Source: Escherichia coli (lineage in GTDB: Bacteria; Pseudomonadota; Gammaproteobacteria; Enterobacterales; Enterobacteriaceae). From it: a stretch of 64,000 nucleotides of DNA. The translations under genes were made by a program, and so were the position numbers. How positions within the stretch are numbered: position 1 is the first letter of the stretch; every line of letters starts with the position of its first letter. Under the pieces are notes generated by a model, which made no database searches, was not told the origin of the DNA, and worked only from the letters and a program-made list of their open reading frames with translations. The stretch lies in NCBI RefSeq assembly GCF_016026235.1, contig NZ_CP065613.1; one strand, given 5' to 3'. Positions 6,704 through 60,227 of this stretch are shown piece after piece.

Positions 6704-6825
6704 GCAGGTGAATGCAACGTCAAGCGATGGGCGTTGCGCTCCATATTGTCTTACTTCCTTTTTTGAATTACTGCATAGCACAATTGATTCGTACGACGCC
6801 GACTTTGATGAGTCGGCTTTTTTTT
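6704..6825 (+). ncRNA. fnrS: FnrS small RNA
   Basis: GCAGGTGAATGCAACGTCAAGCGATGGGCGTTGCGCTCCATATTGTCTTACTTCC...GCCGACTTTGATGAGTCGGCTTTTTTTT matches the remembered 122-nt K-12 FnrS. It ends in an intrinsic terminator and lies between zntB and dbpA. Confidence 0.9.
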
Positions 6826-11126: not shown

Positions 11127-11348
11127 TCACGAGGACTGAAGTTTCTCGCAATTAAAATTTATCAGTTTTACTTTCTGCTCTCTGGAAACGCCTGCTTCTT
11201 TTTCCCCTGAGAGCATTTTTTCGCATTCTGATTTCGTTAGTTTTGTCTTTGAGTATCTTGTCCAGCTGGCAGGAGAACCACCTTCCTTTTCAATAGTGGC
11301 TGTAATTTTATACATGAACACCTCCATTAATATTTTCCCAAAATGCAC
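11127..11348 (-). CDS. Hypothetical small phage protein
   Basis: 73-aa ORF; an internal start MYKITATIEKEGG is possible. It occupies the position of Rac ydaC/rcbA, but I cannot verify similarity. Confidence 0.4.
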   Translation of the reverse strand: MHFGKILMEVFMYKITATIEKEGGSPASWTRYSKTKLTKSECEKMLSGEKEAGVSREQKVKLINFNCEKLQSS

Positions 11349-13105: not shown

Positions 13106-14400
13106 CCTGAGGGATCCCCAGAAAATTTAGTAAACCATTATCATATTGGTATACCGTTGCTGTAGAACTTTCAGCCCTGCGTCAAGTGACAGTGTGTTTA
13201 GTATGAGTGGAGAATGTCGAATCACATTCTCCGCCAGTTTTAATAACGAGATGACTCGCCTGTGCTTCACTGTATTTGCCTGATATTTATGATGTATCCC
13301 TTTGTTTTCCAGGCTGAAACCGCTTAACCACATAATGATACTGGCTAATGTTGCGATCAGACTCAATACCGTGACCCGCCCGGATGAATGACTGGCACCA
13401 AACCGTAGTCCAAATCCCCAGCGAGGATTTTTTTCATCCCTGAAATTTTGCTCAATTTGCATTCTACGGCTGTATAATTTCATTACCTGTTTTGGCGAGA
13501 ACTCAGTACTGTTTGTGAAAATAAACCATGGTGATTTCCCGGCAGTACGAGCTTTAGCCGTCACCGATGGTCTGGTTGCTCTTTCCTTCGAGCGTTTAAA
13601 TCTACGACCTTTAGGCTTACTTTTATAAAGATAAAAATGCCCTTCATGTTGTGCATTTTTATCTCGACCCAGCAGGCCTTCACCTAAATAAATTGCTGTC
13701 GTTGATGCTTTTGTGCCTGAGTCCGACACCTTTTCCCAGCCATTACCAACATTGTAATAATGATTGCCCAGTACCCGGCAAATATAGGTCCAGCCACGGG
13801 AGCGGAGCTGTTGGAACCATCGCCCCTGAAAACCGGCATCTGTAATAACAATGACATCAGTCCCGGGGGAAAAGCACTCAGCAAGCGATTCCAGAAAACG
13901 CTCATGTACATCTGCATTCGCTGTCTGTGATGATGGAACGACACAACTCATCAACGGTAAAGAACGCCCGTCACATGCCAGGCTTGCCCGCAAAAGCTGA
14001 AAACGAGAGGCATGATAAGCACTCCAGTCAATGAGTATCACAACACGAGACATTCCCCGCGTAATCTTTTGGGTAATTCGCTGAAAAATGGTGGAAACCT
14101 CATTTTGCAAATGTCGATTCCCCAACAGTCGATCCACCCGCTTTATTTTGTTTTTAACTGATGCCGTACCGGTTAAATGACGCCCGATACTGGTAAGTGT
14201 GAGGGAAGCGCCATTTATTACAGCATTAGTTGCGTCAATCAGTGATTTTTGACGGTAAAGATGCAAAGGGGCCAGTATGTTGTTAAGGAAATTTTGGCAT
14301 AATGAACGTGCAGGCATAGTGGTGATCTCCTTGAAATTGTTAGCACAATCAATTAGATCACATCTCACTATGCCTGTCTTGTTTTCTGGGGATTCCTCAG
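13106..14400. mobile_element. IS4-family, IS10-like insertion sequence (~1.3 kb)
   Basis: Terminal inverted repeats CTGAGGGATCCCCAGAAAA (left) and CTGAGGAATCCCCAGAAAA (right, reverse complement) resemble IS10 ends. Flanked by the direct repeat GGGTGTTCCC (13096-13105 and 14401-14410; 9-10 bp target duplication). Confidence 0.85.
13127..14368 (-). CDS. IS4-family (IS10-like) DDE transposase
   Basis: 413-aa ORF with KRVDRLLGNRHL, VITDAGF and the YSRRMQIEQNFRDEK (Y-2-R-3-E-6-K) signature. Collinear with the remembered IS10 transposase. The true start may be the internal MPARSL (14317). Confidence 0.85.
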   Translation of the reverse strand: MRCDLIDCANNFKEITTMPARSLCQNFLNNILAPLHLYRQKSLIDATNAVINGASLTLTSIGRHLTGTASVKNKIKRVDRLLGNRHLQNEVSTIFQRITQKITRGMSRVVILIDWSAYHASRFQLLRASLACDGRSLPLMSCVVPSSQTANADVHERFLESLAECFSPGTDVIVITDAGFQGRWFQQLRSRGWTYICRVLGNHYYNVGNGWEKVSDSGTKASTTAIYLGEGLLGRDKNAQHEGHFYLYKSKPKGRRFKRSKERATRPSVTAKARTAGKSPWFIFTNSTEFSPKQVMKLYSRRMQIEQNFRDEKNPRWGFGLRFGASHSSGRVTVLSLIATLASIIMWLSGFSLENKGIHHKYQANTVKHRRVISLLKLAENVIRHSPLILNTLSLDAGLKVLQQRYTNMIMVY

Positions 14401-15998
14401 GGGTGTTCCCTCCTCCGGTTCGCTGTTCTGGTGCTGTTTATCTTCAGTCTGTCGCACTTCATTTTCCGTTTTTTTGACTTCATTTGAGGAGATATGATGA
14501 CCGGGAATCCATTTCGGATCATTCGGGTCGCTAATCCCTTCAACAAATTCTCCGCGAGAGGCAGCCAGTAATTTGTCTGCATCGACAGGATTTTTGGGCG
14601 GAATGTTTTTCCGGGCTTCATGGAGTTCTGCCCGCAGTTCCTGATATTTCTCATCAACAGCATTTACCTGTGACTGAGCATCCAGCGGCTGCGTGTCCTG
14701 ATGATGTTCAGTTGCATCCGGTTCCACTGTTTCAGCCGTTGCCTGTTCATCTGCCATTGCGCAAGATGGTTGCGGTTTTTCTTCATCATCCTGTTTTCCT
14801 TCTTCTGTTACTCGCTGCGGCATCGGGGCAGAGGAGCGACCGCAGGCAATATCCACGATTTCCGGATCAGGGTTGGCATGATCGGTTTCAGTCAGTACCT
14901 TGTTCAGATATTCAGTGACGTGCGCGGGGATGACCTCGATACCAATCGGTGCTTCTTTCACTGACGCAACCACGATGGCGCGGGAATAATCCATCCCGCC
15001 AGGCATGGTGATGAATTTGTCGCGGAAAACAGAAAAGGGCGGTTTATTTTCAGTGATAATTTCCTCAATGCGTTTAGCGTGTGCCGGATGAAGATTATAA
15101 ATATCCACGTCCATTGAACGGGCCAGTACGCCAGTGGCTACGTCGCGCGCCAGCGACGTCAGATCGTGGACGAAACCTTCGCCGCGATCGGTGAGGTTCC
15201 CGCCGCCAGCATTAGCACCGGAAGCCGTGCGAGTGATACGCGAAACACGATTTCCTTTCATCCACTCTTTTGTCAGCAGACCGCGATCGGTGTAGTTGGC
15301 ATCCAGATATGCTTCGAAAAAAGCAGTCATCAGTCCCAGATTTGAATTGCCAGGATTAGGGAAAACTTTGTCAGTATCACGCACGAGTTTGTGGAGGTCG
15401 CGAATCTCCAGCGGGTCGAGCAGACTGGTTTTATGCGAAACAGCCAGAGCAGTAACAGCCGGTAGTTCTTCATCCCGAGCAATGTGTAATGCCTGGAGTT
15501 CGTCGCGTGAAACGTGCGTTACCGGTTTTTCGCTGCCGTGTTGCGCAAGCCAACGAATGGGCAGTTCCTGACCGGAAACTGGCAGGAGCATGTTCTCCTC
15601 AATTTCTGTCATGTCTTCGCCGTTGACGTTGGTATTGTCAGTGCTGGCTGGTTTGTCCTGAACAGAGGGAGAAGATGCGATAAATACCATTGTGATGCCA
15701 TCTTCCCCGCCTTTTTCGTAACGGTTGCAGAATTCCGTATCAAACACGCCTTCTGGTGGGAGGTCATCAACAACGGGCAAATTGACGCGAACAGGTTTTT
15801 TAAAGTCATCTTCATCGTAGCCAGCATCGTCAATCGCAACAGCACCACGGGAGATGGCAATGGATAATTTTTTCGCTTCAGCCCAGTAAAAACCGCCTTT
15901 AATACCGAGGCGTTTTCTTACTTTGTCATTTTTTGCTTCGTAATACAGTGGGTAAACTTGTTTATCGGTGCTCATTGTTTTTTAACCTCAACTCATAT

Positions 15999-16667: not shown

Positions 16668-17213
16668 TTATTTTAAGGAAAGCAACTGCTCTACGGTCAT
16701 GTTTTTAATTGCGCCCCGGTTTACAAGAGTCCAGCCCTGTTTTTCCAGATAAAACCGGAAAGTCTCCAGGGTACAGACCAGTGCGCCATCAGGAACGGTT
16801 TCGGTGAATTCGACATTGCCGAATTTGTCGAAGTGAACAACCAGAGTGCGACCATCACCCGGAATCATCTTGTCAGCAGGTGGGGTGTTATTCTGGCGCA
16901 GTTCGGCCTCCATGCGGTCGAACTCAGCAATGTAGGCTTCCTTGAATGTGGCGGCTTTTTTGCCCGTGAAGCCCATCACCAGGAAAACGAAGCCGTTTTT
17001 GGTGATTTGGTAGGCGTTATAAGAATTGCCGCGGTGTTCGAATTTAACCCGCGAAAAGTTGCTGGTTAAAAATAGTTCAGAACATTCGAGGGATTCTATT
17101 TTTTGAACAACATGGTGATGCTGCTTGCCAAAAAACTCAGCAATCGAAATAGAAGTAGTGACGGCGCGACCATTTTCGATGGTTACGTCAGGGTGAGAAA
17201 GGGTAGTAGCCAT
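16668..17213 (-). CDS. Rha-family phage regulatory protein (antirepressor-like)
   Basis: Start placed at MATTLSHPDVTIENGRAVTTSISIAEFFGKQHHHVVQKIESL...YQITKNGFVFLVMGFTGKKAATFKEAYIAEFDRME (pRha domain), with a GAGGA SD 7 nt upstream. The 98 upstream codons of the track ORF cover a promoter, a terminator and RNA structures. Confidence 0.75.
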   Translation of the reverse strand: MATTLSHPDVTIENGRAVTTSISIAEFFGKQHHHVVQKIESLECSELFLTSNFSRVKFEHRGNSYNAYQITKNGFVFLVMGFTGKKAATFKEAYIAEFDRMEAELRQNNTPPADKMIPGDGRTLVVHFDKFGNVEFTETVPDGALVCTLETFRFYLEKQGWTLVNRGAIKNMTVEQLLSLK

Positions 17214-17268
17214 AATGACATCCTCAAGTGATAAGTTAATTAACTCACCAGCAGAGGTGCTAATCTCA

Positions 17269-17350
17269 TGGGTGGTGAGACGCACAGGGTTAGCACTACC
17301 GGTCACTCGAGAACCCGGCCAGCCTTGCGGCTGCCCCGCACGCCTCACCA
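17269..17350 (-). ncRNA. Candidate C4-like antisense RNA (P1/P7 immI type) with a tRNA-acceptor-like closing stem
   Basis: 10-bp terminal stem UGGUGAGGCG/CGUCUCACCA followed by CCCA. Internal CAGCC-GCAA-GGCUG hairpin. Loop-displayed CUCGAGUGAC and single-stranded GUGCUAACCC are complementary to two sense motif pairs, one upstream and one over the rha RBS. Confidence 0.5.
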
Positions 17351-17379
17351 TAATTTGAATGTGGCTGTGCATTACGCAT

Positions 17380-17402
17380 AAAAAAACCGCTTCAGCGCGG
17401 TT
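17380..17402 (-). terminator. Intrinsic terminator downstream of the a1/b1 motif unit
   Basis: Minus strand AACCGCGCTGAAGCGGTTTTTTT: GC stem followed by a T7 run. Confidence 0.65.
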
Positions 17403-17462
17403 ATGCGCTCGAGTAACTTTCGGGGTGCTAATCCCGGCACCCGTTTTATGAGGTGCAGGTGC

Positions 17463-17491
17463 ACTATAATTCCACCCGTTCTGGTTTTCAA
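17463..17491 (-). promoter_or_regulatory. Sigma70-like promoter TTGAAA-17 nt-TATAGT
   Basis: Minus strand TTGAAAaccagaacgggtggaatTATAGT. It would start transcription near 17456, upstream of the a1/b1 motifs. Confidence 0.5.
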
Positions 17492-17529
17492 TAGCTACAT
17501 TCAACATTTTCTCTTTCCTTTCATCACCG

Positions 17530-17684
17530 AAGTGAATTTTGTGATGCGGTGCCTGGTGCCTCCAGGTGACGTTAACCAGTTAACAATTACAGTCGGCTTT
17601 CCCACCCAAAACAATAAGGACTAACATGACTTTTAACTGTGCCGCGTGCGCTTAGCCGCATTCACCGCATCACAAAATTCACTT
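17530..17684. repeat. Perfect 22-bp inverted repeat (AAGTGAATTTTGTGATGCGGTG) with a 111-bp spacer
   Basis: 17530-17551 is the exact reverse complement of 17663-17684. On the minus-strand transcript this forms a 22-bp perfect duplex immediately 3' of the DicF-like terminator. Confidence 0.9.
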
Positions 17685-17685
17685 T

Positions 17686-17742
17686 AAAAAGGGCGGACAT
17701 CAGCCAGCAATTAAACCGATGCCGCCAACTGGTACTTCACAC
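17686..17742 (-). ncRNA. dicF: DicF-like small RNA
   Basis: Minus strand ...GAAGTACCAGTTGGCGGCATCGGTTTAATTGCTGGCTGATGTCCGCCCTTTTT aligns with the remembered K-12 DicF (..GACGTTTGGCGGTATCAGTTTTACTCCGTGACTGCTCTGCCGCCCTTTTT). It shares the following AAAGTGAATTTTGTGATG.GGTGAATGCGGCT.AGCGCACGCGG. It lies downstream of the ydfA-like gene as in Qin. The 5' end is approximate. Confidence 0.65.
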
Positions 17743-17914
17743 AGCAATGTCGTTATTTACAACCGGAAGCGCACTCCCACCATTTAAATTTCACAGACAA
17801 GACCGACTCTTTATGAATACCGGAAATGCGCCTTCGTGTTGTGCCCGGTTTTATTTCACCACCTCCGGGCTTTGGTGGTATCTTTACTGAAGTTCTCACA
17901 CAACCAGTAAGGAA

Positions 17915-18238
17915 ATGAATATGCCAACGTATCTCGCCAGAGTAGAACTATATAATGCTGAGCCAGAGGATTACGAAGGGCTTCATAAATATATGCTCTC
18001 ACTAGGATTCAGGAGAACGATCCCCCATGGAGATGGTTCGTATAATCAACTCCCGGACGGAACTTATGTTTCCGAAAAGGGCGGTGATATTTATCAAATT
18101 CGCAGCCAGATATCTGACTATGCAGACCGACTATCCGGGTATCGCGCGTCTGTTTTGTTTGCGAATTCAGTCAATGCGCATGGTATTTATACCCCGCCAA
18201 GACCCGGTGAATATCCTGCACGGCCTTCTGCTTTGTAG
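17915..18238 (+). CDS. Hypothetical protein (105-107 aa), opposite orientation to the surrounding operon
   Basis: AAGGAA RBS. Translation MNMPTYLARVELYNAEPEDYEGLHKYMLSLGFRRTIPHGDGSYNQLPDGTYV... The 3' end overlaps the convergent 18187-18390 ORF by about 50 nt. Confidence 0.5.
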   Translation: MNMPTYLARVELYNAEPEDYEGLHKYMLSLGFRRTIPHGDGSYNQLPDGTYVSEKGGDIYQIRSQISDYADRLSGYRASVLFANSVNAHGIYTPPRPGEYPARPSAL

Positions 18239-18390
18239 AAGGCTTCTTCGCTATCATAATCGCCAGATTCCAGCGCTTCTTTAGCCAGCCAGATGCGTGC
18301 CCCAGTGCCTGCATTTGGCTCCAGTTGCTGGAGGCGTTTTGCATCTTCTAGGAGTAGAGCGATAACGTGTTTTAATTCTGTCTCGTTCAT
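18187..18390 (-). CDS. Hypothetical small protein of the dicB-like operon
   Basis: MNETELKHVIALLLEDAKRLQQLEPNAG... The start sits next to the ydfA-like stop (GGTGAGTAAAATG). It is the positional equivalent of Qin ydfB/ydfC. Confidence 0.5.
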   Translation of the reverse strand: MNETELKHVIALLLEDAKRLQQLEPNAGTGARIWLAKEALESGDYDSEEAFYKAEGRAGYSPGLGGV

Positions 18391-18852: not shown

Positions 18853-19272
18853 TTATTCCGGTGGGGGATTATCTTTAATCCTGCCTCTCAAATATTTTTC
18901 TACATACTCATCGATTTCTTTTAGCCGGACTTCAAATAGCTCAATCATTCGTTGTTGTTCTGAGCCCGGTAGCTGGTTAAACAACTCAAGAAGTTTTCGT
19001 TGGGATTCATTTAACCACAATTCAGAAGATTCCTGTTCTCCAAAGAGGAGCTCAGGAGGAGATATGCCAAGTGCCTTTCCCAATACGACAGCGTCATGTA
19101 CTCCAACATTTCTGCTGCCCGCCTCATAGTTACCTATACGCGATTGCGTCCATCCGCAGATTTCAGCAAGTTTTCCTTGAGATAAACCAAGCTTCTGCCT
19201 GCGCTCTTTAAGACGCATTGCAATTTTGTCATTGAGCCTACTAGCGGCAATTTTTTCGTTTTCTTTTTCCAT
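18853..19272 (-). CDS. DicA/CI-like HTH (XRE family) prophage repressor
   Basis: 139-aa ORF with HTH LGLSQGKLAEICGWTQSRIGNYEAG and a C-terminal LLELFNQLPGSEQQRMIELFE resembling DicA LELFNALPESEQ. Divergent from the Cro-like gene. Confidence 0.75.
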   Translation of the reverse strand: MEKENEKIAASRLNDKIAMRLKERRQKLGLSQGKLAEICGWTQSRIGNYEAGSRNVGVHDAVVLGKALGISPPELLFGEQESSELWLNESQRKLLELFNQLPGSEQQRMIELFEVRLKEIDEYVEKYLRGRIKDNPPPE

Positions 19273-25920: not shown

Positions 25921-26090
25921 GAAGGAAACAAAACAGAAACAGCAATTGCCGTTACCTGTTGTTACCATGGCAAGTAAACGTATCTCAGGCGAGCGCATTG
26001 CGCCGTTCTGACGCAGATAAACTAGCCTGGATAGATGGTGCTGGCAATAAAAAATAGCGTTTTCTTATCGGTGTCGGTAAGATTGCTGCG

Positions 26091-26258
26091 GGTGCTTGAG
26101 GCTGTCTGCCTCGGGCATGTCACTGTAAGGCAGACAGAGAAAAGCCCCAGTTAACATTACGCGTCCTGCAAGACGCTTAACATTAATCTGAGGCCCAATC
26201 TATGTCTCACAAATGTAGGTTAGCCTCTTACGTGCCGAAAGGCAAGGAGAAGCAGGCT
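26091..26258 (+). promoter_or_regulatory. hok mRNA leader with mok reading frame and 5' tac element
   Basis: GGTGCTTGAGGCTGTCTGCCTCGGG... parallels the remembered 5' end of R1 hok mRNA (GGCGCUUGAGGCUUUCUGCCUC). The 3' segment CCTCAACGCACC (about 26466-26477) can pair with the 5' end (fbi-like). The mok ORF starts at 26202. Confidence 0.6.
26155..26215 (-). ncRNA. Putative Sok-like antisense RNA (coordinates approximate)
   Basis: Expected antisense partner of the mok leader. Hairpin GCGTCTTGCAGGACGC on the minus strand and a weak TTGCCT-17-TAACCT promoter upstream. Not independently verifiable here. Confidence 0.3.
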
Positions 26259-26414
26259 ATGAAGCAGCAAAAGGCGATGTTAATCGCCCTGATCGTCATC
26301 TGTTTAACCGTCATTGTGACGGCACTGGTAACGAGGAAAGACCTCTGCGAGGTACGAATCCGAACCGGCCAGACGGAGGTCGCTGTCTTCGTAGACTACG
26401 AATCTAGAGAGTAA
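26259..26414 (+). CDS. Hok-family type I toxin (HokD/RelF-like)
   Basis: MKQQKAMLIALIVICLTVIVTALVTRKDLCEVRIRTGQTEVAVFVDYESRE (51 aa), with AAGGAG RBS. Near-identical to the remembered HokD. Confidence 0.85.
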   Translation: MKQQKAMLIALIVICLTVIVTALVTRKDLCEVRIRTGQTEVAVFVDYESRE

Positions 26415-27866: not shown

Positions 27867-28417
27867 TTTACCCAACAAATACAGGCAAAAGCGGGGAACA
27901 CCTTCGTCTCACCACGCTGGAAAGTGTCTGGATTCAGGGAAAACTGCGCATGTGGGGGCGCTGGTCGTATATTGGCGGCGGTAAGACGGGGAATATGTTC
28001 AACCAGTTGTTGGCCTCTAAAAAGCTGACAAAAACGGCAATTAACGAGGCGCTCCGGAGGATGAAAAAAGCAGGTCTGGACAAACCTGAACTTGAGGCTT
28101 TTTTGCGGGATATGATCAACGGCAAGCAAAAAAGCTGGCTGGTGCATTGTACTGACGCAGAGGCGTTATGCATTGATCGGGTGATTAGTGAAGTGCTGGC
28201 AGAACACCCAGGATTGATTTGTATCCTCCGGCAACGATATGAAGGGAGTGGGATGACTAAGCGAAAAATGGCTGAATTGCTGAATGATTCACACCCTGAG
28301 TGGTGTTATCGGACGTGTTGCAGTCGGGTTGATGTATGGCTAAATCTTGCTGAATATATGCTCTATCTACCGATGCGTGATGCATTCTCTTCCGGGGATC
28401 TAAAAACCGTCTGTTGA
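27863..28417 (+). CDS. Late-gene antiterminator Q
   Basis: Start at MIYPTNTGKSGEHLRLTTLESVWIQGKLRMWGRWSYIGGGKTGNMF (184 aa). Overlaps the upstream stop (ATGA). Followed by a strong promoter and terminator, as for lambdoid PR'-tR'. Confidence 0.7.
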   Translation: MIYPTNTGKSGEHLRLTTLESVWIQGKLRMWGRWSYIGGGKTGNMFNQLLASKKLTKTAINEALRRMKKAGLDKPELEAFLRDMINGKQKSWLVHCTDAEALCIDRVISEVLAEHPGLICILRQRYEGSGMTKRKMAELLNDSHPEWCYRTCCSRVDVWLNLAEYMLYLPMRDAFSSGDLKTVC

Positions 28418-28443
28418 CTCAATCTGTTATCCGGGGCTATATT
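28414..28443 (+). promoter_or_regulatory. Candidate late promoter PR' (TTGACT-18 nt-TATATT)
   Basis: Overlaps the end of Q. About 60 nt downstream lies an intrinsic terminator, the canonical Q-antitermination arrangement. Confidence 0.55.
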
Positions 28444-28505
28444 CCTCACGCGCCAGCAAAATCTGGCGTCGGGATTGGCGTCCCGGATGTTTACGGAGCG
28501 ATATG

Positions 28506-28527
28506 AGACGCGCCCGCGTCTTTTTTC
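28506..28527 (+). terminator. tR'-like intrinsic terminator
   Basis: GAGACGCGCCCGCGTCTTTTTTC. Confidence 0.7.
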
Positions 28528-28689
28528 ATATCGTTTGCACAGTCTCATTCGCGATTTATGGCGGGCTGTGTGGGGGAGCCGAAAGGCTCGCCGGTTTCCG
28601 TACCCGGTTACGCCAACCCTGCACAGTTCGCCACCAGTTCGATTGGCGTCGTCGGTGGCGATAATTTCCAAATGTACGGAGTTATCGTT

Positions 28690-29247
28690 ATGACCACTCA
28701 AATCTCTGTTGAAACTCTCTCCCCGATCACCCATAACCAGATTCCTGTTATTACCACCGAACTTTTGGCGCAGCTTTACGGCACTGAGCCGGTGCGTATT
28801 CGCCAGAATCATCATGAGAACAAAGTACGCTTCGTTGAAGGGAAACACTTTTTCAAAGTTGTTGGTAATGACCTTAAAGAATTGCGGGTAGCTTTAAACT
28901 ACTCACAAAATCCCATCTCTCCCAAAGCCCGCTCCCTCATCCTCTGGACAGAACGAGGCGCAGCACGCCACGCCAAAATGCTCGAAACCGATCAGGCGTG
29001 GGATGTGTTCGAAAAACTGGAAGACTGCTATTTCAGTCAAAAGGATCCGTCAACGCCAGTTTCATGCCAGAAAAGTTACGACACGCGAGTTCTCTGTTAT
29101 CAGAGAGGCGGTGTCACTGTTTCCACAATTCAGTTACGGGATGATGATATTGTTATTTCCCTTGAGTCATGGCTGGAACTGGCGAGAGCCAATGGTTGGT
29201 TTGTTGTTCGCAGAGATAAACTGGTGGAAAGGTTGATGCAGCTTTAA
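28690..29247 (+). CDS. ORF6N-domain (KilA-N-related/antirepressor-like) protein
   Basis: Start at MTTQISVETLSPITHNQIPVITTELLAQLYGTEPVRIRQNHHENKVRFVEGKHFFKV...LWTERGAARHAKMLETDQAWDVFEKLEDCYF (185 aa). Confidence 0.65.
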   Translation: MTTQISVETLSPITHNQIPVITTELLAQLYGTEPVRIRQNHHENKVRFVEGKHFFKVVGNDLKELRVALNYSQNPISPKARSLILWTERGAARHAKMLETDQAWDVFEKLEDCYFSQKDPSTPVSCQKSYDTRVLCYQRGGVTVSTIQLRDDDIVISLESWLELARANGWFVVRRDKLVERLMQL

Positions 29248-29455: not shown

Positions 29456-29532
29456 GGCCCTTTAGCTCAGTTGGTCAGAGCGAGCGACTCATAATCGCCA
29501 GGTCGCTGGTTCAAGTCCAGCAAGGGCCACCA
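29456..29532 (+). tRNA. tRNA with CAU anticodon, ileX-like (Ile2 via lysidine, or Met)
   Basis: Cloverleaf with acceptor GGCCCTT/AAGGGCC, anticodon loop CTCATAA, T-loop GGTTCAAGTCC and encoded CCA. Resembles the remembered E. coli ileX. Confidence 0.85.
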
Positions 29533-29533
29533 A

Positions 29534-29610
29534 CCACCACTAGCTCATCCGGATAGAGCATCAACCTTCTAAGTTGACGGTGCGAGGTTCGAGTCCTCGG
29601 TGGTGGGCCA
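29534..29610 (+). tRNA. tRNA-Arg (UCU)
   Basis: Acceptor CCACCAC/GTGGTGG, anticodon stem-loop TCAAC-CTTCTAA-GTTGA, T-arm CGAGG-TTCGAGT-CCTCG and encoded CCA. Confidence 0.85.
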
Positions 29611-29612
29611 GC

Positions 29613-29688
<76 letters not shown>

Positions 29689-29691
29689 TAT

Positions 29692-29766
<75 letters not shown>

Positions 29767-33363: not shown

Positions 33364-35443
33364 TGCTGAATCAGGAAACCGCAAAGGCAGCACGAACCGA
33401 TTCAGGTTATATCCTTCGCGCACCAAGACGAATGCGGGTTGCTGATGCCGTTGCTCAGTATATGCGGGTGCCCATGGGGCAGGGAACTCAGTCCCGTGGG
33501 ATCCGCTGGTGGCACCGTATGTTATTGAGCCGATGAACTGCCTGGCCTCGCGTGAATACGACGCAGTGATATTTGTTGGCCCGGCACGAACCGGCAAGAC
33601 TATCGGCCTGATTGACGGCTGGGTGATTTACAACGTGATTTGCGATCCTGCTGATATGCTGATCATTCAGATGACGGAGGAAAAAGCCCGCGAACACTCC
33701 AAAAAACGACTCGCCAGAACGTTTCGCGTCAGCCCGGAAGTGGTCAGTCGCCTGAGTCCGAACAAAAATGACAACAACGTTTATGACAGAACATTCCTTG
33801 CTGGCAACTACCTGAAAATCGGCTGGCCGTCAGTCAATATCATGTCCTCATCAGATTATAAATGCGTCGCGCTGACGGATTATGACCGTTTTCCGGAAGA
33901 TATTGATGGTGAGGGGGATGCTTTCTCTCTTGCCTCAAAACGTACCACAACATTTATGTCCAGTGGTATGACGCTGGTGGAGAGTTCCCCCGGCAGGGAT
34001 GTGAAGGATGTGAAATGGCGACGGACTTCACCGCATGAGGCTCCACCAACCACGGGGATACTGTCGCTCTATAACCGTGGCGATCGCCGTCGCTGGTACT
34101 GGCCCTGTCCACACTGTGGTGAGTATTTTCAGCCCTGCGGCGATGTGGTTGCTGGTTTCCGTGATATTGCCGATCCCGTGCTGGCAAGTGAGGCGGCTTA
34201 TATTCAGTGTCCTTCCTGTTCAGGACGGATTATGCCTGAACAAAAACGTGAGCTGAACGGACGTGGGGTCTGGTTGCGGGATGGTGAATCCATCAATGCG
34301 GATGGCAGTCGTTATGGTGATCCCAGGCGTTCACGTATTGCGTCATTCTGGATGGAGGGTCCGGCAGCTGCTTACCAGACACTCTCGCAACTCGTTTACA
34401 AACTGCTTACTGCAGAACAGGAATACGAGACAACCGGAAGTGAAGAAACACTCAGGGCGGTTATCAACACCGACTGGGGATTACCTTATCTTCCCCGCGC
34501 CAGCATGGAGCAACGAAAAAGTGAACTGCTTGAGCAGCGGGCAGAGCCTGTTCCTCCCCGCTGCGTGCCGGATGGTGTTAATTTCCTGGCGGCGACAGTG
34601 GATGTGCAGGCGGGACGTCATCGCCGTTTTGTGGTTCAGGTAACGGGTTATGGTTGCCGTGGCGAACGCTGGATTATTGATCGTTACAACATCACGCAGT
34701 CATTGCGTTGTGACAACAACGGAGAAAGCCTGCGAATTGATCCTGCTGGTTATCCTGAGGACTGGGATGTCCTGCTGACGGATGTTTTTCATAAAAGCTG
34801 GCCGTTGGCCTCCGATCCTTCTCAACAAATGCGACTGATGGCAATGGCGGTGGACTCCGGCGGTGAAGACGGGGTCACTGATAATGCCTATAAATTCTGG
34901 CGTCGTTGCCGTCGTGATGGCCTTGGTAAACGTATTTACCTGTTTAAGGGCGACAGCATCCGGCGCGCAAAACTGATCACCCGTACATTCCCTGATAACA
35001 CCGGACGAACGGGCCGACGGGCGCAGGCCGCAGGTGATGTGCCGCTCTGGCTTCTTCAGACGGATGCCCTGAAAGACCGGGTGAATAACGCGTTATGGCG
35101 TGACTCGCCAGGTCCCGGCTATGTGCATTTCCCTGACTGGCTGGGGAGCTGGTTTTACGACGAACTGACGTATGAAGAGCGGAGCAGTGACGGGAAATGG
35201 AGTAAGCCGGGTCGAGGTGCCAACGAAGCTTTTGACCTGATGGTGTATGCCGAGGCTCTGGTCATTCTGCATGGTTACGAGAAAATTCAGTGGCCGGATG
35301 CGCCGGAATGGGCATGCAGGGAAACCTGGCTGGAGCGTGTCAGGGACGATGCCGGACTGTCAGCCTCGCCGGAGCCGGTATCCGTGTCCGTTAAAAAAAG
35401 AAACGAAAAAAAGTGGTGCCTGATGAAGAAAACCCATGGGTGA
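33363..35443 (+). pseudogene. Terminase large subunit (GpA family), frameshifted near the N-terminus and possibly again near the C-terminus
   Basis: TAATG coupling to terS gives the start at 33363 (MLNQETAKAARTDSGYILRAPRRMRVADAVAQYMRVPMG..). The main frame resumes ..GNSVPWDPLVAPYVIEPMNCLAS...GPARTGKT...WYWPCPHCGEYF. One extra G at 33476-33479 joins them. One extra A at 35406-35412 would give ...EKKVVPDEENPWVTSGGWL* ending in a GTGA overlap with gpW. Confidence 0.8.
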
Positions 35444-59862: not shown

Positions 59863-60089
59863 TGAATAAATCCTTTAGTTATTTTATTTGCCTTTTATCC
59901 CCATTTCGGGGAGTGAAAACATCCTAAAGGAGAAGTTCAGTTAGCCGATAAATATCATTTGTTACGCCTTAAGTAAAACCTTAATCAAAAAATTCCTCTG
60001 AAATGATAATAAGTCTGGTGAATGTATCGAAGATAATACATACAAAATAAAAATTATACTTTTAATTTTCTATACGTTATTCTGCGCGG

Positions 60090-60198
60090 GTTATATGCCT
60101 TTATTGTCACAGATTTTATTTTCTGTTGGGCCATTGCATTGCCACTGATTTTCCAACATATAAAAAGACAAGCCCGAACAGTCGTCTGGGCTTTTTTT
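60090..60198 (+). ncRNA. micC: MicC small RNA
   Basis: GTTATATGCCTTTATTGTCACAGATTTTATTTTCTGTTGGGCCATTGCATTGCCACTGATTTTCCAACATATAAAAAGACAAGCCCGAACAGTCGTCTGGGCTTTTTTT matches the remembered K-12 MicC. Located in the ompN-ydbK intergenic region. Confidence 0.9.
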
Positions 60199-60227
60199 TA
60201 GAATTGGATAATCCTTATCCAGAGCAT

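Follow-up and report, generated by a model that had tools for sequence, protein, structure and literature searches.

The minus-strand region upstream of rha, in the 64,000-nucleotide stretch of Escherichia coli DNA that we analysed (the window), is an intact but not annotated example of an RNA switch that is well known from prophages, of the type represented by P1 c4, P4 CI and Salmonella IsrK. It is an element of a known kind, correctly identified by an earlier sequence-only reading, and not a new sort of element. We consider it highly probable that it constitutes a complete c4-type RNA immunity module, with the proposed processing of an antisense RNA (C4), a block by C4 and competition by a second RNA (a1b1). 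The host element is a Rac-like lambdoid prophage, in whose early-left operon the module has the repressor-side genes on one side and the recE-like genes on the other; the previous description of the module as grafted onto a Qin/dicB-type operon needs softening to this setting, as a dicB pseudogene fragment is found directly upstream only in relatives, and the 64-kb window holds neither an Rfam DicF match nor a dicB ORF. The prophage carries IS insertions, one of which adjoins a truncated recE-like ORF.

All motifs reported before were recovered at their minus-strand positions, beginning with a sigma-70-type promoter (TTGAAA-17-TATAGT, 17463-17491) that matches the consensus at 10 of 12 bases and is the sole promoter-like site returned by a consensus scan of 17100-18300. 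The predicted transcription start lies near 17456, and the match to the Rfam IsrK model (RF01394) begins 7 nt past the -10 hexamer. Words common to 17440-17620 and the repressor/cro intergenic region, where a shared repressor operator was sought, amount to one 10-mer outside the core promoter, and this comparison gives no evidence of repressor control. A repressor of 139 aa is encoded at 18853-19272. The separate unit of about 77 nt with a terminator at its end, recognised earlier from the letters, corresponds to the full-length IsrK match at 17456-17380 (68.5 bits, gathering score 50), while the c4-a1b1 model (RF03163) scores 23.8 bits on it, under its cutoff. This leader RNA (17378-17456) folds into a first hairpin, a second one with the a1 core in its loop, a linker with b1, and an intrinsic terminator. 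The a1 box, GGGATTAGCAC (RNA GGGAUUAGCAC), occupies 17425-17435, with its core UUAGCAC at 17431-17425, and the b1 box, GTTACTCGAG (RNA GUUACUCGAG), 17408-17417. The terminator (17378-17402), with the stem AACCGC/GCGGUU and a U7 tract, was called by a terminator scan (stem 17402-17385, then T7) and also forms the 3' part of the IsrK match; both promoter and terminator of an IsrK-type unit are present at the level of sequence.

That a C4-family antisense RNA follows is strongly confirmed by the Rfam C4 model (RF01695), which matches 17268-17355 on the minus strand over all 87 model positions (1-87) with 78.6 bits (gathering score 45). The element (82-87 nt) folds with -46.9 kcal/mol (z = -3.8), and its minimum-free-energy, centroid and consensus folds coincide, including the GCAA tetraloop. 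Both the CAGCC-GCAA-GGCUG hairpin and the display of b' in a hairpin loop, as previously proposed, are found in this fold, the b' loop measuring 12 nt; the closing stem is likewise present, but it is 17 bp long and not 10. The b' word, CTCGAGTGAC, lies at 17311-17302, and together the loop GUUCUCGAGUGA and the first C of its stem span 17302-17314; the a' word, GTGCTAACCC or GUGCUAA(CCC) (17287-17296), falls in an 8-nt unpaired junction. Each of the three C4 helices shows 100% pairing across 34 relatives, where a total of 13 pairs covary, and the 5' AUGG and 3' CC are invariant. Because the P1 record annotates the ends of c4, a processing site can be predicted by analogy, which would give a mature C4 of about 17349-17271; as hallmarks of an RNase P substrate, the element has a terminal helix of 7 bp, and both the U|G at the predicted cleavage site and the 3' CC are invariant. 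ARAGORN finds no tRNA or tmRNA at this acceptor-like end.

Downstream of C4, the a2 box, GAGATTAGCAC (RNA GAGAUUAGCAC), is located at 17257-17267 and the b2 box, TCACTTGAG, at 17231-17223. In its extended form, UCACUUGAGGAU (17220-17231), b2 contains the Shine-Dalgarno sequence GAGGA of rha (17225-17221), as the earlier reading had claimed, and it ends 9 nt ahead of the start codon (ATG at 17213). The 9/9 pairing described for b' and b2 holds and extends further, to 12 bp with 3 G-U pairs between GUUCUCGAGUGA and UCACUUGAGGAU, which cover the whole Shine-Dalgarno sequence with a duplex energy of -16.5 kcal/mol. The additional GGG/CCC match between a1 and a' is complementary too, but lies inside intramolecular stems on both partners and would be usable only if these open. 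The putative regulated cargo, rha (16668-17213, minus strand), encodes a 181-aa antirepressor-like protein whose assignment to the Rha family is upheld by Pfam (PF09669, E 2.9e-26, residues 19-102), and its MAT... start right behind b2 is kept in relatives. A C4-type RNA in front of a Rha gene is not an unusual arrangement, as phage records already annotate Rha and antirepressor genes behind homologous modules.

In the 64-kb window, GATTAGCAC occurs twice against 0.41 expected, and the bipartite motif GATTAGCAC-N(5-30)-YAYTYGAG occurs exactly twice, both times at the rha locus, against 0.00 in 100 shuffles. A pattern search of viral contigs gave 111 distinct hits, of which 73 carry the exact complement of their own a' 7-mer both upstream and downstream at fixed offsets, with a non-cognate control rate of 0.0001, and the exact a2 7-mer is present downstream in 82 of the 111 (unfiltered set); an 8-mer extended by the unpaired base that follows CCGGU found almost no matches, marking the 7-mer as the correct register. 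In 34 aligned modules, a1:a' is 100% paired, with 5 of 7 pairs covarying, and b1:b' 92.5%, with 9 of 9 covarying; jointly they are 95.8% paired, against 67.6% when shuffled and at most 49% when slid, and 14 of 16 pairs are changed on both sides. For a2:a' the figure is 91%, with 5 covarying pairs. In the same MAFFT alignment b2:b' is just 47.8% paired, with its best value at a slide of -2, because the register varies between modules, and support for this pairing rests on an alignment-free longest-run test with non-cognate controls, in which cognate runs average 9.56 nt and non-cognate ones 6.28 (57 modules). In nearly all of these 57 modules b2 lies on the Shine-Dalgarno sequence, typically ending 6-11 nt before the ATG. 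A calculation that ignores intramolecular structure does not clearly separate full-length C4-target duplexes from shuffles (z from -0.7 to -2.2); short-segment duplexes and covariation were used in their place. The sequence of the module, its fold, its family membership and the covariation of all four pairings are established directly.

The Rfam models that match the rha module also match the characterised loci of P1, P4 and Gifsy-1, and their order is the same. In P1, whose record annotates a1, b1, c4, a2 and b2, the C4, c4-a1b1 and IsrK models score 68.8, 51 and 35 bits. The P1/P7 c4 RNA of immI (RF01695, RF03163) shares the three helices, the placement of b' in a hairpin loop and of a' in a junction, and the AU|GG 5' and ACC 3' ends. 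The layout of the rha locus, with a1b1, the antisense copy and a2b2 on the ribosome-binding site, was likened before to P1 immI, and its order and spacing indeed agree with the annotated P1 region: promoter, a1, b1, terminator-like hairpin, C4, a2, b2 and start codon follow each other in both, each has 7 nt between a1 and b1, and the distance from b2 to the ATG is 10 nt in P1 and 9 nt here. The two differ in their a/b words, in the C1 operator of P1, of which no counterpart is recognisable at the rha-module promoter, in their hosts (a plasmid prophage and a lambdoid one) and in their cargo, since P1 has a c4-icd-ant1/ant2 operon with icd coupled to ant, whereas here the Rha ORF comes right after b2, without ant1/ant2. 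No icd-like ORF was found at the rha module, and P1 Icd has no Pfam family for comparison.

The isrK-orf45/STnc1160-anrP locus of Gifsy-1 (IsrK 79.3 bits, C4 69 bits) is related through both RNAs: the upstream unit of the rha module passes the IsrK model, and Gifsy-1 itself has a C4 match between isrK and anrP, with a2/b2 on the anrP Shine-Dalgarno sequence. Its a/b words differ, its cargo is of the ORF6N type and not Rha, and its position after Q is not the early-left one of the rha module. The published compensatory mutants G28-C162 and G31-C159 of IsrK (PMC4825925, Table 1D) affect, when numbered from the Rfam IsrK 5' end, the a1 core (G28, G31) and a' (C162, C159), and therefore test exactly the a1:a' pairing. 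IsrK supplied in trans raised anrP translation about 140-fold, which was explained by alternative folds and translational coupling via orf45 and not by relief of C4 from a2b2, and constitutive STnc1160 left IsrK toxicity unblunted (PMC4825925). In P4 (C4 74.9, IsrK 60.8 bits), the CI RNA of seqA-cI/seqB-seqC is likewise a processed small RNA that pairs with one upstream and one downstream site. P22 sar is also a small RNA that blocks translation initiation of an antirepressor (ant), but it is a true cis-antisense RNA from the opposite strand and not a processed same-strand RNA with bipartite words and a decoy.

By comparison with these systems, we infer how C4 is processed, that it acts in trans, in which direction it regulates and what biological role Rha has. 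Transcription from the promoter at 17491-17463 would initiate near 17456 and mostly halt at the intrinsic terminator (17402-17378), releasing a sRNA of about 77 nt with a1 in a hairpin loop and b1 just behind. Read-through transcripts would hold the C4 RNA of about 80 nt (17349-17271), which RNase P may excise by a cut between U17350 and G17349, as in P1, whose C4 is a documented RNase P substrate (PMC11143913). With b' in its 12-nt loop and a' in its junction, C4 would then bind the rha leader at a2 (17263-17257) and b2 (17231-17220), cover the Shine-Dalgarno sequence and keep Rha from being translated; transcription further downstream might be lost as a polar effect. The a1b1 RNA, in cis or as a free sRNA, would bind the same a'/b' surfaces and act as a competitor that lifts the block. 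This decoy or sponge role, also suggested by the sequence-only reading, is an old proposal of Citron and Schuster (1990), which the supplement of PMC2864571 summarises, and by analogy the Gifsy-1 IsrK experiments fit it.

The same complementarities could instead operate purely in cis, with a single mRNA toggling between a1b1:a'b' and a2b2:a'b', and between the C4 stem and an alternative hairpin at 17244-17279 (minus strand), folds that would uncover or mask the start region, and with no C4 released, a scheme that we regard as possible but unlikely. Every pairing partner is indeed on a single transcript, and in Gifsy-1 regulation was attributed to two alternative structures, A and B, that the read-through transcript can adopt (PMC4825925). 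The rha locus also has the competing helix this requires: CUCACCA (17279-17273), in the 3' strand of C4, pairs with UGGUGAG (17250-17244), shows a2 in the loop and is mutually exclusive with the C4 closing stem, and in 34 modules this hairpin is 98.7% paired, with 4 pairs changed on both sides and slid controls at or below 64%. Overlapping hairpins of this type were noted by Weinberg et al. (PMC2864571). Against a purely cis mode stand the RNase P excision and trans action of P1 c4, the accumulation of a processed STnc1160 of about 80 nt in Salmonella, an invariant 5' AUGG and a 3' end of the ACC type, which suit a processing substrate, and the action of IsrK in trans, although cis and trans modes are not exclusive.

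More doubtful is an immunity of the P4 type, where C4 pairing would mainly cause premature termination of the operon, as CI does with seqA and seqC, and block translation only secondarily. The C4 and IsrK models do match the CI and seqA regions of P4 above their cutoffs, the analogy with P4 was drawn in the IsrK paper itself (PMC4825925), and a U/A-rich tract follows the hairpin 17279-17244, with UUUU in some relatives. At the rha locus, however, this tract (UUAAUUAAC) makes a poor terminator that the scan did not call, and the downstream site is a ribosome-binding site directly before the cargo, whereas P4 CI terminates transcription of a replication operon; the near-universal position of b2 on the Shine-Dalgarno sequence points to ribosome occlusion, and in P1 the loss of transcription follows from the translational block.

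It is improbable that the region serves as protein-coding sequence, namely as an "Ash"-type N-terminal extension of Rha, in the form either of the 279-aa protein that RefSeq annotates from ATG 17507 or of a 227-aa orf45-Rha fusion beginning at ATG 17351. The frame is open from both ATGs into rha, with 98 stop-free codons in the frame of rha, which makes a longer protein formally possible; Pfam Phage_ASH (PF10554) matches residues 14-105 with E 1.6e-16, and orf45 of Gifsy-1 is translated. Yet the -35 element of the module itself is downstream of ATG 17507, the ORF contains an intrinsic terminator, and neither 17351 nor 17507 is preceded by a good Shine-Dalgarno sequence, unlike ATG 17213. Substitutions follow no codon periodicity (0.68/0.59/0.72 and 0.73/0.73/0.72 over the three positions), and variation tracks RNA pairing. 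In Gifsy-1, orf45 ends on the anrP start codon, whereas here the frame from ATG 17351 enters rha without a stop; of 53 relatives, only 22 keep an open and in-frame stretch from the C4 AUG, and in 22 it is interrupted. The first 98 codons of the 279-aa "Rha family" call in fact consist of two small RNA genes with a promoter and a terminator, and Phage_ASH matches a conceptual translation at this locus and not a translated domain. In P4, the sequence that belongs to PF10554 is the former "cI" CDS, which overlies the CI RNA. The family, which has served as a P4 epsilon marker (PMC8628076), seems to model translations of such RNA modules.

Chance complementarity, or a decayed and functionless duplication, is effectively refuted by covariation, for although the prophage has IS insertions and the CTCGAG palindrome, a caveat already raised, does make part of the b pairing trivial in the rha copy, the bipartite motif is expected zero times in shuffles, all elements are intact, and dozens of relatives stay complementary with other, non-palindromic b words, which removes the caveat.

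A second, heterospecific module is found, complete and with its own Rfam matches, at 28414-28703 on the plus strand of the same window. It comprises a promoter (TTGACT-18-TATATT, 28414-28443), an IsrK match (28450-28526) with a1 at 28473-28481 and b1 at 28490-28498, a C4 match (28554-28638) with the b' loop at 28595-28603 and a' at 28610-28616, a2 at 28641-28649 and b2 at 28674-28681, followed by an ORF6N gene as cargo (ATG 28690; Pfam ORF6N, E 2.6e-20). This copy is located after Q and before the ORF6N gene, tRNAs and lysis genes, the genomic position of the Gifsy-1 locus, while the rha module is not directly downstream of Q. Between the two copies the a and b words differ in all three partners at once. 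Cognate duplexes are predicted at -9 to -16.5 kcal/mol and non-cognate ones at -1.8 to -9.8, the strongest of the latter being that of the rha-module a' with a1 of the second copy. These modelled energies suggest that the a/b words determine the specificity of immunity, such that the different words of the second module would gate another antirepressor-like gene; limited one-way cross-talk is conceivable, as the rha-module a' can pair with the a boxes of the second copy through G-U pairs.

We tentatively extend this reading beyond the window, as a conjecture with some merit: IsrK-type sRNAs might in general be the a1b1 decoys of c4 modules and STnc1160 a C4 RNA, IsrK might activate anrP mainly by titrating C4 off a2/b2, and reassorting a/b words might form a two-part address code for insulated switches. 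The published IsrK-anrP study did not consider titration of a C4 block (PMC4825925). If the conjecture is true, the a/b words are hypervariable and freely reassorting, and one prophage, or several in a cell, could run several insulated RNA-gated switches that control different antirepressor, derepression or anti-defence genes; here, one would act early-left on Rha and one behind Q on ORF6N. The two heterospecific modules of this window are a ready-made natural test of such specificity. The rha locus joins the literatures on P1 c4, P4 CI and Salmonella IsrK, which are still listed separately in accessible reviews. Of 5426 complete E. coli genomes, 971 (about 18%) contain related sequence, as do many Stx phages, and RNA-gated antirepressors in such elements could affect both the induction of prophages and the release of toxin.

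The minus-strand stretch in front of rha (copy 1, ~17213-17491) matches the Rfam C4 model (RF01695) over all 87 positions (17355-17268, 78.6 bits against a gathering score of 45), in line with the P1 c4-like layout recognised in the sequence-only reading. The separate ~77-nt upstream unit with its own terminator, also claimed there, is a full-length match to the IsrK model (RF01394; 17456-17380, all 77 positions, 68.5 bits against a gathering score of 50); on it the c4-a1b1 model (RF03163) reaches 23.8 bits, under threshold. On this strand, promoter hexamers (TTGAAA-17-TATAGT, 17491-17463, 10/12 matches), the sole promoter-like site found by consensus scan within 17100-18300, are followed by the sense boxes a1 (17435-17425) and b1 (17417-17408), a terminator stem (17402-17385) and T run, likewise from the consensus scan, the complementary words b' (17311-17302) and a' (17296-17287) inside the C4 RNA, and the sense boxes a2 (17267-17257) and b2 (17231-17223) at the Shine-Dalgarno sequence (17225-17221) and ATG (17213) of rha. 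A check of the sequence found every motif where it had been placed; the bipartite sense pattern, GATTAGCAC-N(5-30)-YAYTYGAG, occurs exactly twice in the 64-kb window vs 0 times in 100 shuffles, and the 9-mer common to a1 and a2 has two sites there, both in copy 1.

The same Rfam models were run on three characterised elements. The GenBank record of P1 annotates a1, b1, a 77-nt c4 RNA, a2, b2 and icd, an order shared with the window, and the spacings agree (a1-b1 gap 7 nt in both; a2-b2 gap 22 nt in P1 and 25 nt in the window; b2 end to ATG 10 and 9 nt); it scores 68.8 bits with C4, 51 bits with c4-a1b1 and 35 bits with IsrK, and, the IsrK match being full length, the a1b1 leader of P1 is homologous to IsrK, terminator-like hairpin included. 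Gifsy-1 scores 79.3 bits with IsrK and 69 bits with C4, the latter lying between isrK and anrP, an antirepressor-like gene; this is where STnc1160 ("orf45'"), a ~80-nt processed RNA, maps (PMC4825925). In P4, C4 matches over the CI RNA region (74.9 bits) and IsrK upstream of it (60.8 bits). These matches assign the window element to a single, widespread type of module: a promoter, an a1b1 sRNA with terminator, a C4/CI RNA, a2b2 on a ribosome-binding site, and a cargo gene.

The MFE structure of the C4 element is also its centroid structure (-46.9 kcal/mol, z = -3.8) and agrees with the fold first described. The closing stem spans 17 bp, one hairpin reads CAGCC-GCAA-GGCUG, the b' word occupies a 12-nt loop, and a' lies in a junction whose 8 nt are unpaired. 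The pairing of b' with the rha leader extends to 12 consecutive bases (17231-17220, 3 G-U), including the whole Shine-Dalgarno sequence. A further GGG/CCC pairing proposed between a1 and a' holds as complementarity, but its bases are already held in stems in both the a1 unit and C4.

We scanned viral contigs once with a pattern built from invariant C4 bases and obtained 111 distinct hits, 73 of which have the exact complement of their a' 7-mer at a fixed offset on either side, upstream as well as downstream (non-cognate rate 0.0001). Across the 111, no fewer than 13 distinct a' words combine with dozens of b' loops; the two reassort, one b' loop occurring with three different a' words. In a MAFFT alignment of 34 modules with a 12-nt b' loop, the window being row 1, the C4 helices are 100% paired (13 covarying pairs), a1:a' is paired in 100% of cells (covariation in 5/7 pairs), b1:b' in 92.5% (9/9) and a2:a' in 91% (5 covarying pairs); a1:a' and b1:b' jointly reach 95.8% vs 67.6% when shuffled and at most 49% when slid, with covariation in 14/16 pairs. 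There b2:b' is misregistered, so that its 47.8% pairing and its covariation are not reliable; in an alignment-free test of 57 modules, the longest run has a mean of 9.56 nt for cognate and 6.28 nt for non-cognate loops, and b2 ends 6-11 nt ahead of the ATG in most of them. It is chiefly the recognition words that vary (entropy 1.1-1.4 bits vs 0.53 in paired C4 columns). The covariation and alignment-free results across relatives remove the initial caveat that the self-complementarity of b makes its pairing partly trivial. As judged from sequence comparison, selection acts on all four pairings, and the parts and fold of the module are likewise established.

A further helix covaries. CUCACCA (17279-17273), the 3' side of the C4 closing stem, can instead pair with UGGUGAG (17250-17244), which repeats the 5' side further downstream; the resulting alternative hairpin (17244-17279, minus strand) carries a2 in its loop. 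Across the 34 modules 98.7% of this helix is paired and both partners have changed in four of its pairs; slid controls reach at most 64%. It is incompatible with the closing stem, and the unprocessed transcript thus has alternative folds; Weinberg et al. described hairpins that overlap the closing stem in its 3' half (PMC2864571 supplement).

A second complete module (copy 2) lies on the plus strand at 28414-28703, with promoter, IsrK (75.6 bits; c4-a1b1 52.2 bits), C4 (77.6 bits) and a2/b2 in order; its promoter sits directly behind a Q-type antiterminator gene, and an ORF6N-domain gene (module and gene, 28414-29247) has a2 and b2 on its Shine-Dalgarno sequence, with four tRNA genes and lysis genes further downstream. 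The Gifsy-1 isrK locus occupies the same position, after a Q-type gene and before an ORF6N-domain gene. The words of the two copies differ in all three partners at once (a word UUAGCAC in copy 1, UUGGCGU in copy 2; b' loop GUUCUCGAGUGA and UUUCCGUAC). In short duplexes, the copy 1 b' pairs with its cognate b1 / b2 at -15.5 / -16.5 kcal/mol (non-cognate -3.3 to -6.2) and a' with a1 / a2 at -13.9 / -9.0 kcal/mol (non-cognate -1.8 to -9.8). Gene order (repressor, cro-like, replication, nin-type, Q, lysis) suggests that both copies reside in one lambdoid prophage.

On identical sequence, RefSeq (PGAP) annotates a 279-aa Rha protein (16668-17507, minus strand) whose frame covers the module promoter, both RNAs and the terminator, and Pfam PF10554 (Phage_ASH) matches its N-terminal extension (E 1.6e-16, residues 14-105, window 17193-17468, minus strand). 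A minor dual use of the stretch, as RNA and for translation, is conceivable: translation of orf45 from the C4 AUG was demonstrated in Gifsy-1 (PMC4825925). A protein extension of Rha from ATG 17507 is unlikely, since this ATG is upstream of the module -35, the terminator lies inside the ORF, no codon periodicity was found in substitutions, the frame from the C4 AUG is open and in frame in just 22 of 53 relatives, and in P4 (8330-8521) PF10554 matches an obsolete "cI gene product" CDS over the CI RNA. True P4 epsilon matches PF25738, yet PF10554 has served to mark epsilon (PMC8628076); what this family models is probably the translation of an RNA gene. The more likely start of Rha is ATG 17213 (181 aa), judged by its domain and a good Shine-Dalgarno sequence.

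In P1, C4 is excised by RNase P (PMC11143913) and blocks translation at a2/b2. By analogy with such characterised relatives, copy 1 transcription most likely starts near 17456 and would mostly stop at 17378-17402, yielding the a1b1 sRNA; read-through would supply C4, cut at U17350|G17349 and with a 3' end near 17271, which would pair with a2/b2 and block Rha synthesis until a1b1 RNA lifts the block. The decoy role suggested for a1b1 in the sequence-only reading matches an earlier proposal of a1b1 as competitor for C4, as summarised in the PMC2864571 supplement, and the trans effect in Gifsy-1, where IsrK raises anrP translation ~140-fold (PMC4825925). Numbered from the Rfam IsrK 5' end, Gifsy-1 G28 and G31 fall in the a1 core UUGGCGU (26-32) and C159 and C162 in a' ACGCCAA (158-164), so the compensatory mutants of that study test a1:a' itself. 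The Gifsy-1 locus (34076-34130, minus strand) also has an a2 (AUUGGCGU) and a b2 (AUCACCGGAGG) of its own at the Shine-Dalgarno sequence of anrP, sites not discussed in the IsrK paper (PMC4825925); the partial rather than full restoration in its double mutants would, we infer, fit weakened a':a2 pairing.

Two complete E. coli genomes match the module at 100% identity over 411 nt, and related sequence occurs in 971 of 5426; among phage records, 153 have copy-1-type and 281 copy-2-type sequence, mostly Stx phages. FnrS (6704-6821), RalA (11131-11309), a hok/sok-type locus (26090-26414), a Met, Arg, Thr and Gly tRNA cluster (29456-29766) and MicC (60087-60207) place the window in the Rac/ompN region of E. 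coli, together with a large lambdoid prophage. Copy 1 has Rac-type neighbours (a recE-like ORF, ydaE-like, DUF1391, HTH repressor and ydaT-like genes). At 13127-15975 (minus strand), an IS4-family transposase ORF (413 aa) directly adjoins the 535-aa recE-like ORF, which suggests truncation of the exonuclease gene by the insertion. The site just ahead of the module holds a dicB pseudogene fragment in relatives. In the window it holds an inverted repeat with perfect 22-nt arms (17530-17551 / 17663-17684, 111 nt apart), which adjoins the promoter on its upstream side and may be an inversion scar or a small insertion.

Cargo genes behind related modules encode Rha, ORF6N, Bro-N, P4-epsilon-like Derepression and Tad2-like proteins; the viral contigs L016 (1770-2300), L026 and L015/L055/L103/L118 supply the Tad2-like (Thoeris anti-defence), Derepression and Bro-N cases and several family-less small ORFs. 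L054, L028 and L092 hold two or three modules each, every one with its own a'/b' words; in L054, three tandem units 656 nt apart (78-87% identical) each precede a short (~120 aa) Rha-like ORF.

The sequence-only reading was thus right in both observation and interpretation: copy 1 is a textbook-type c4 module, found by existing Rfam models, in a genomic setting that is new and with recognition words of its own. Modest value is added by the heterospecific copy 2, by the alternative helix with its covariation, which that reading did not list, by the apparent equivalence of IsrK with a1b1 and of STnc1160 with C4, still listed apart in accessible reviews, and by the mis-annotation as protein.
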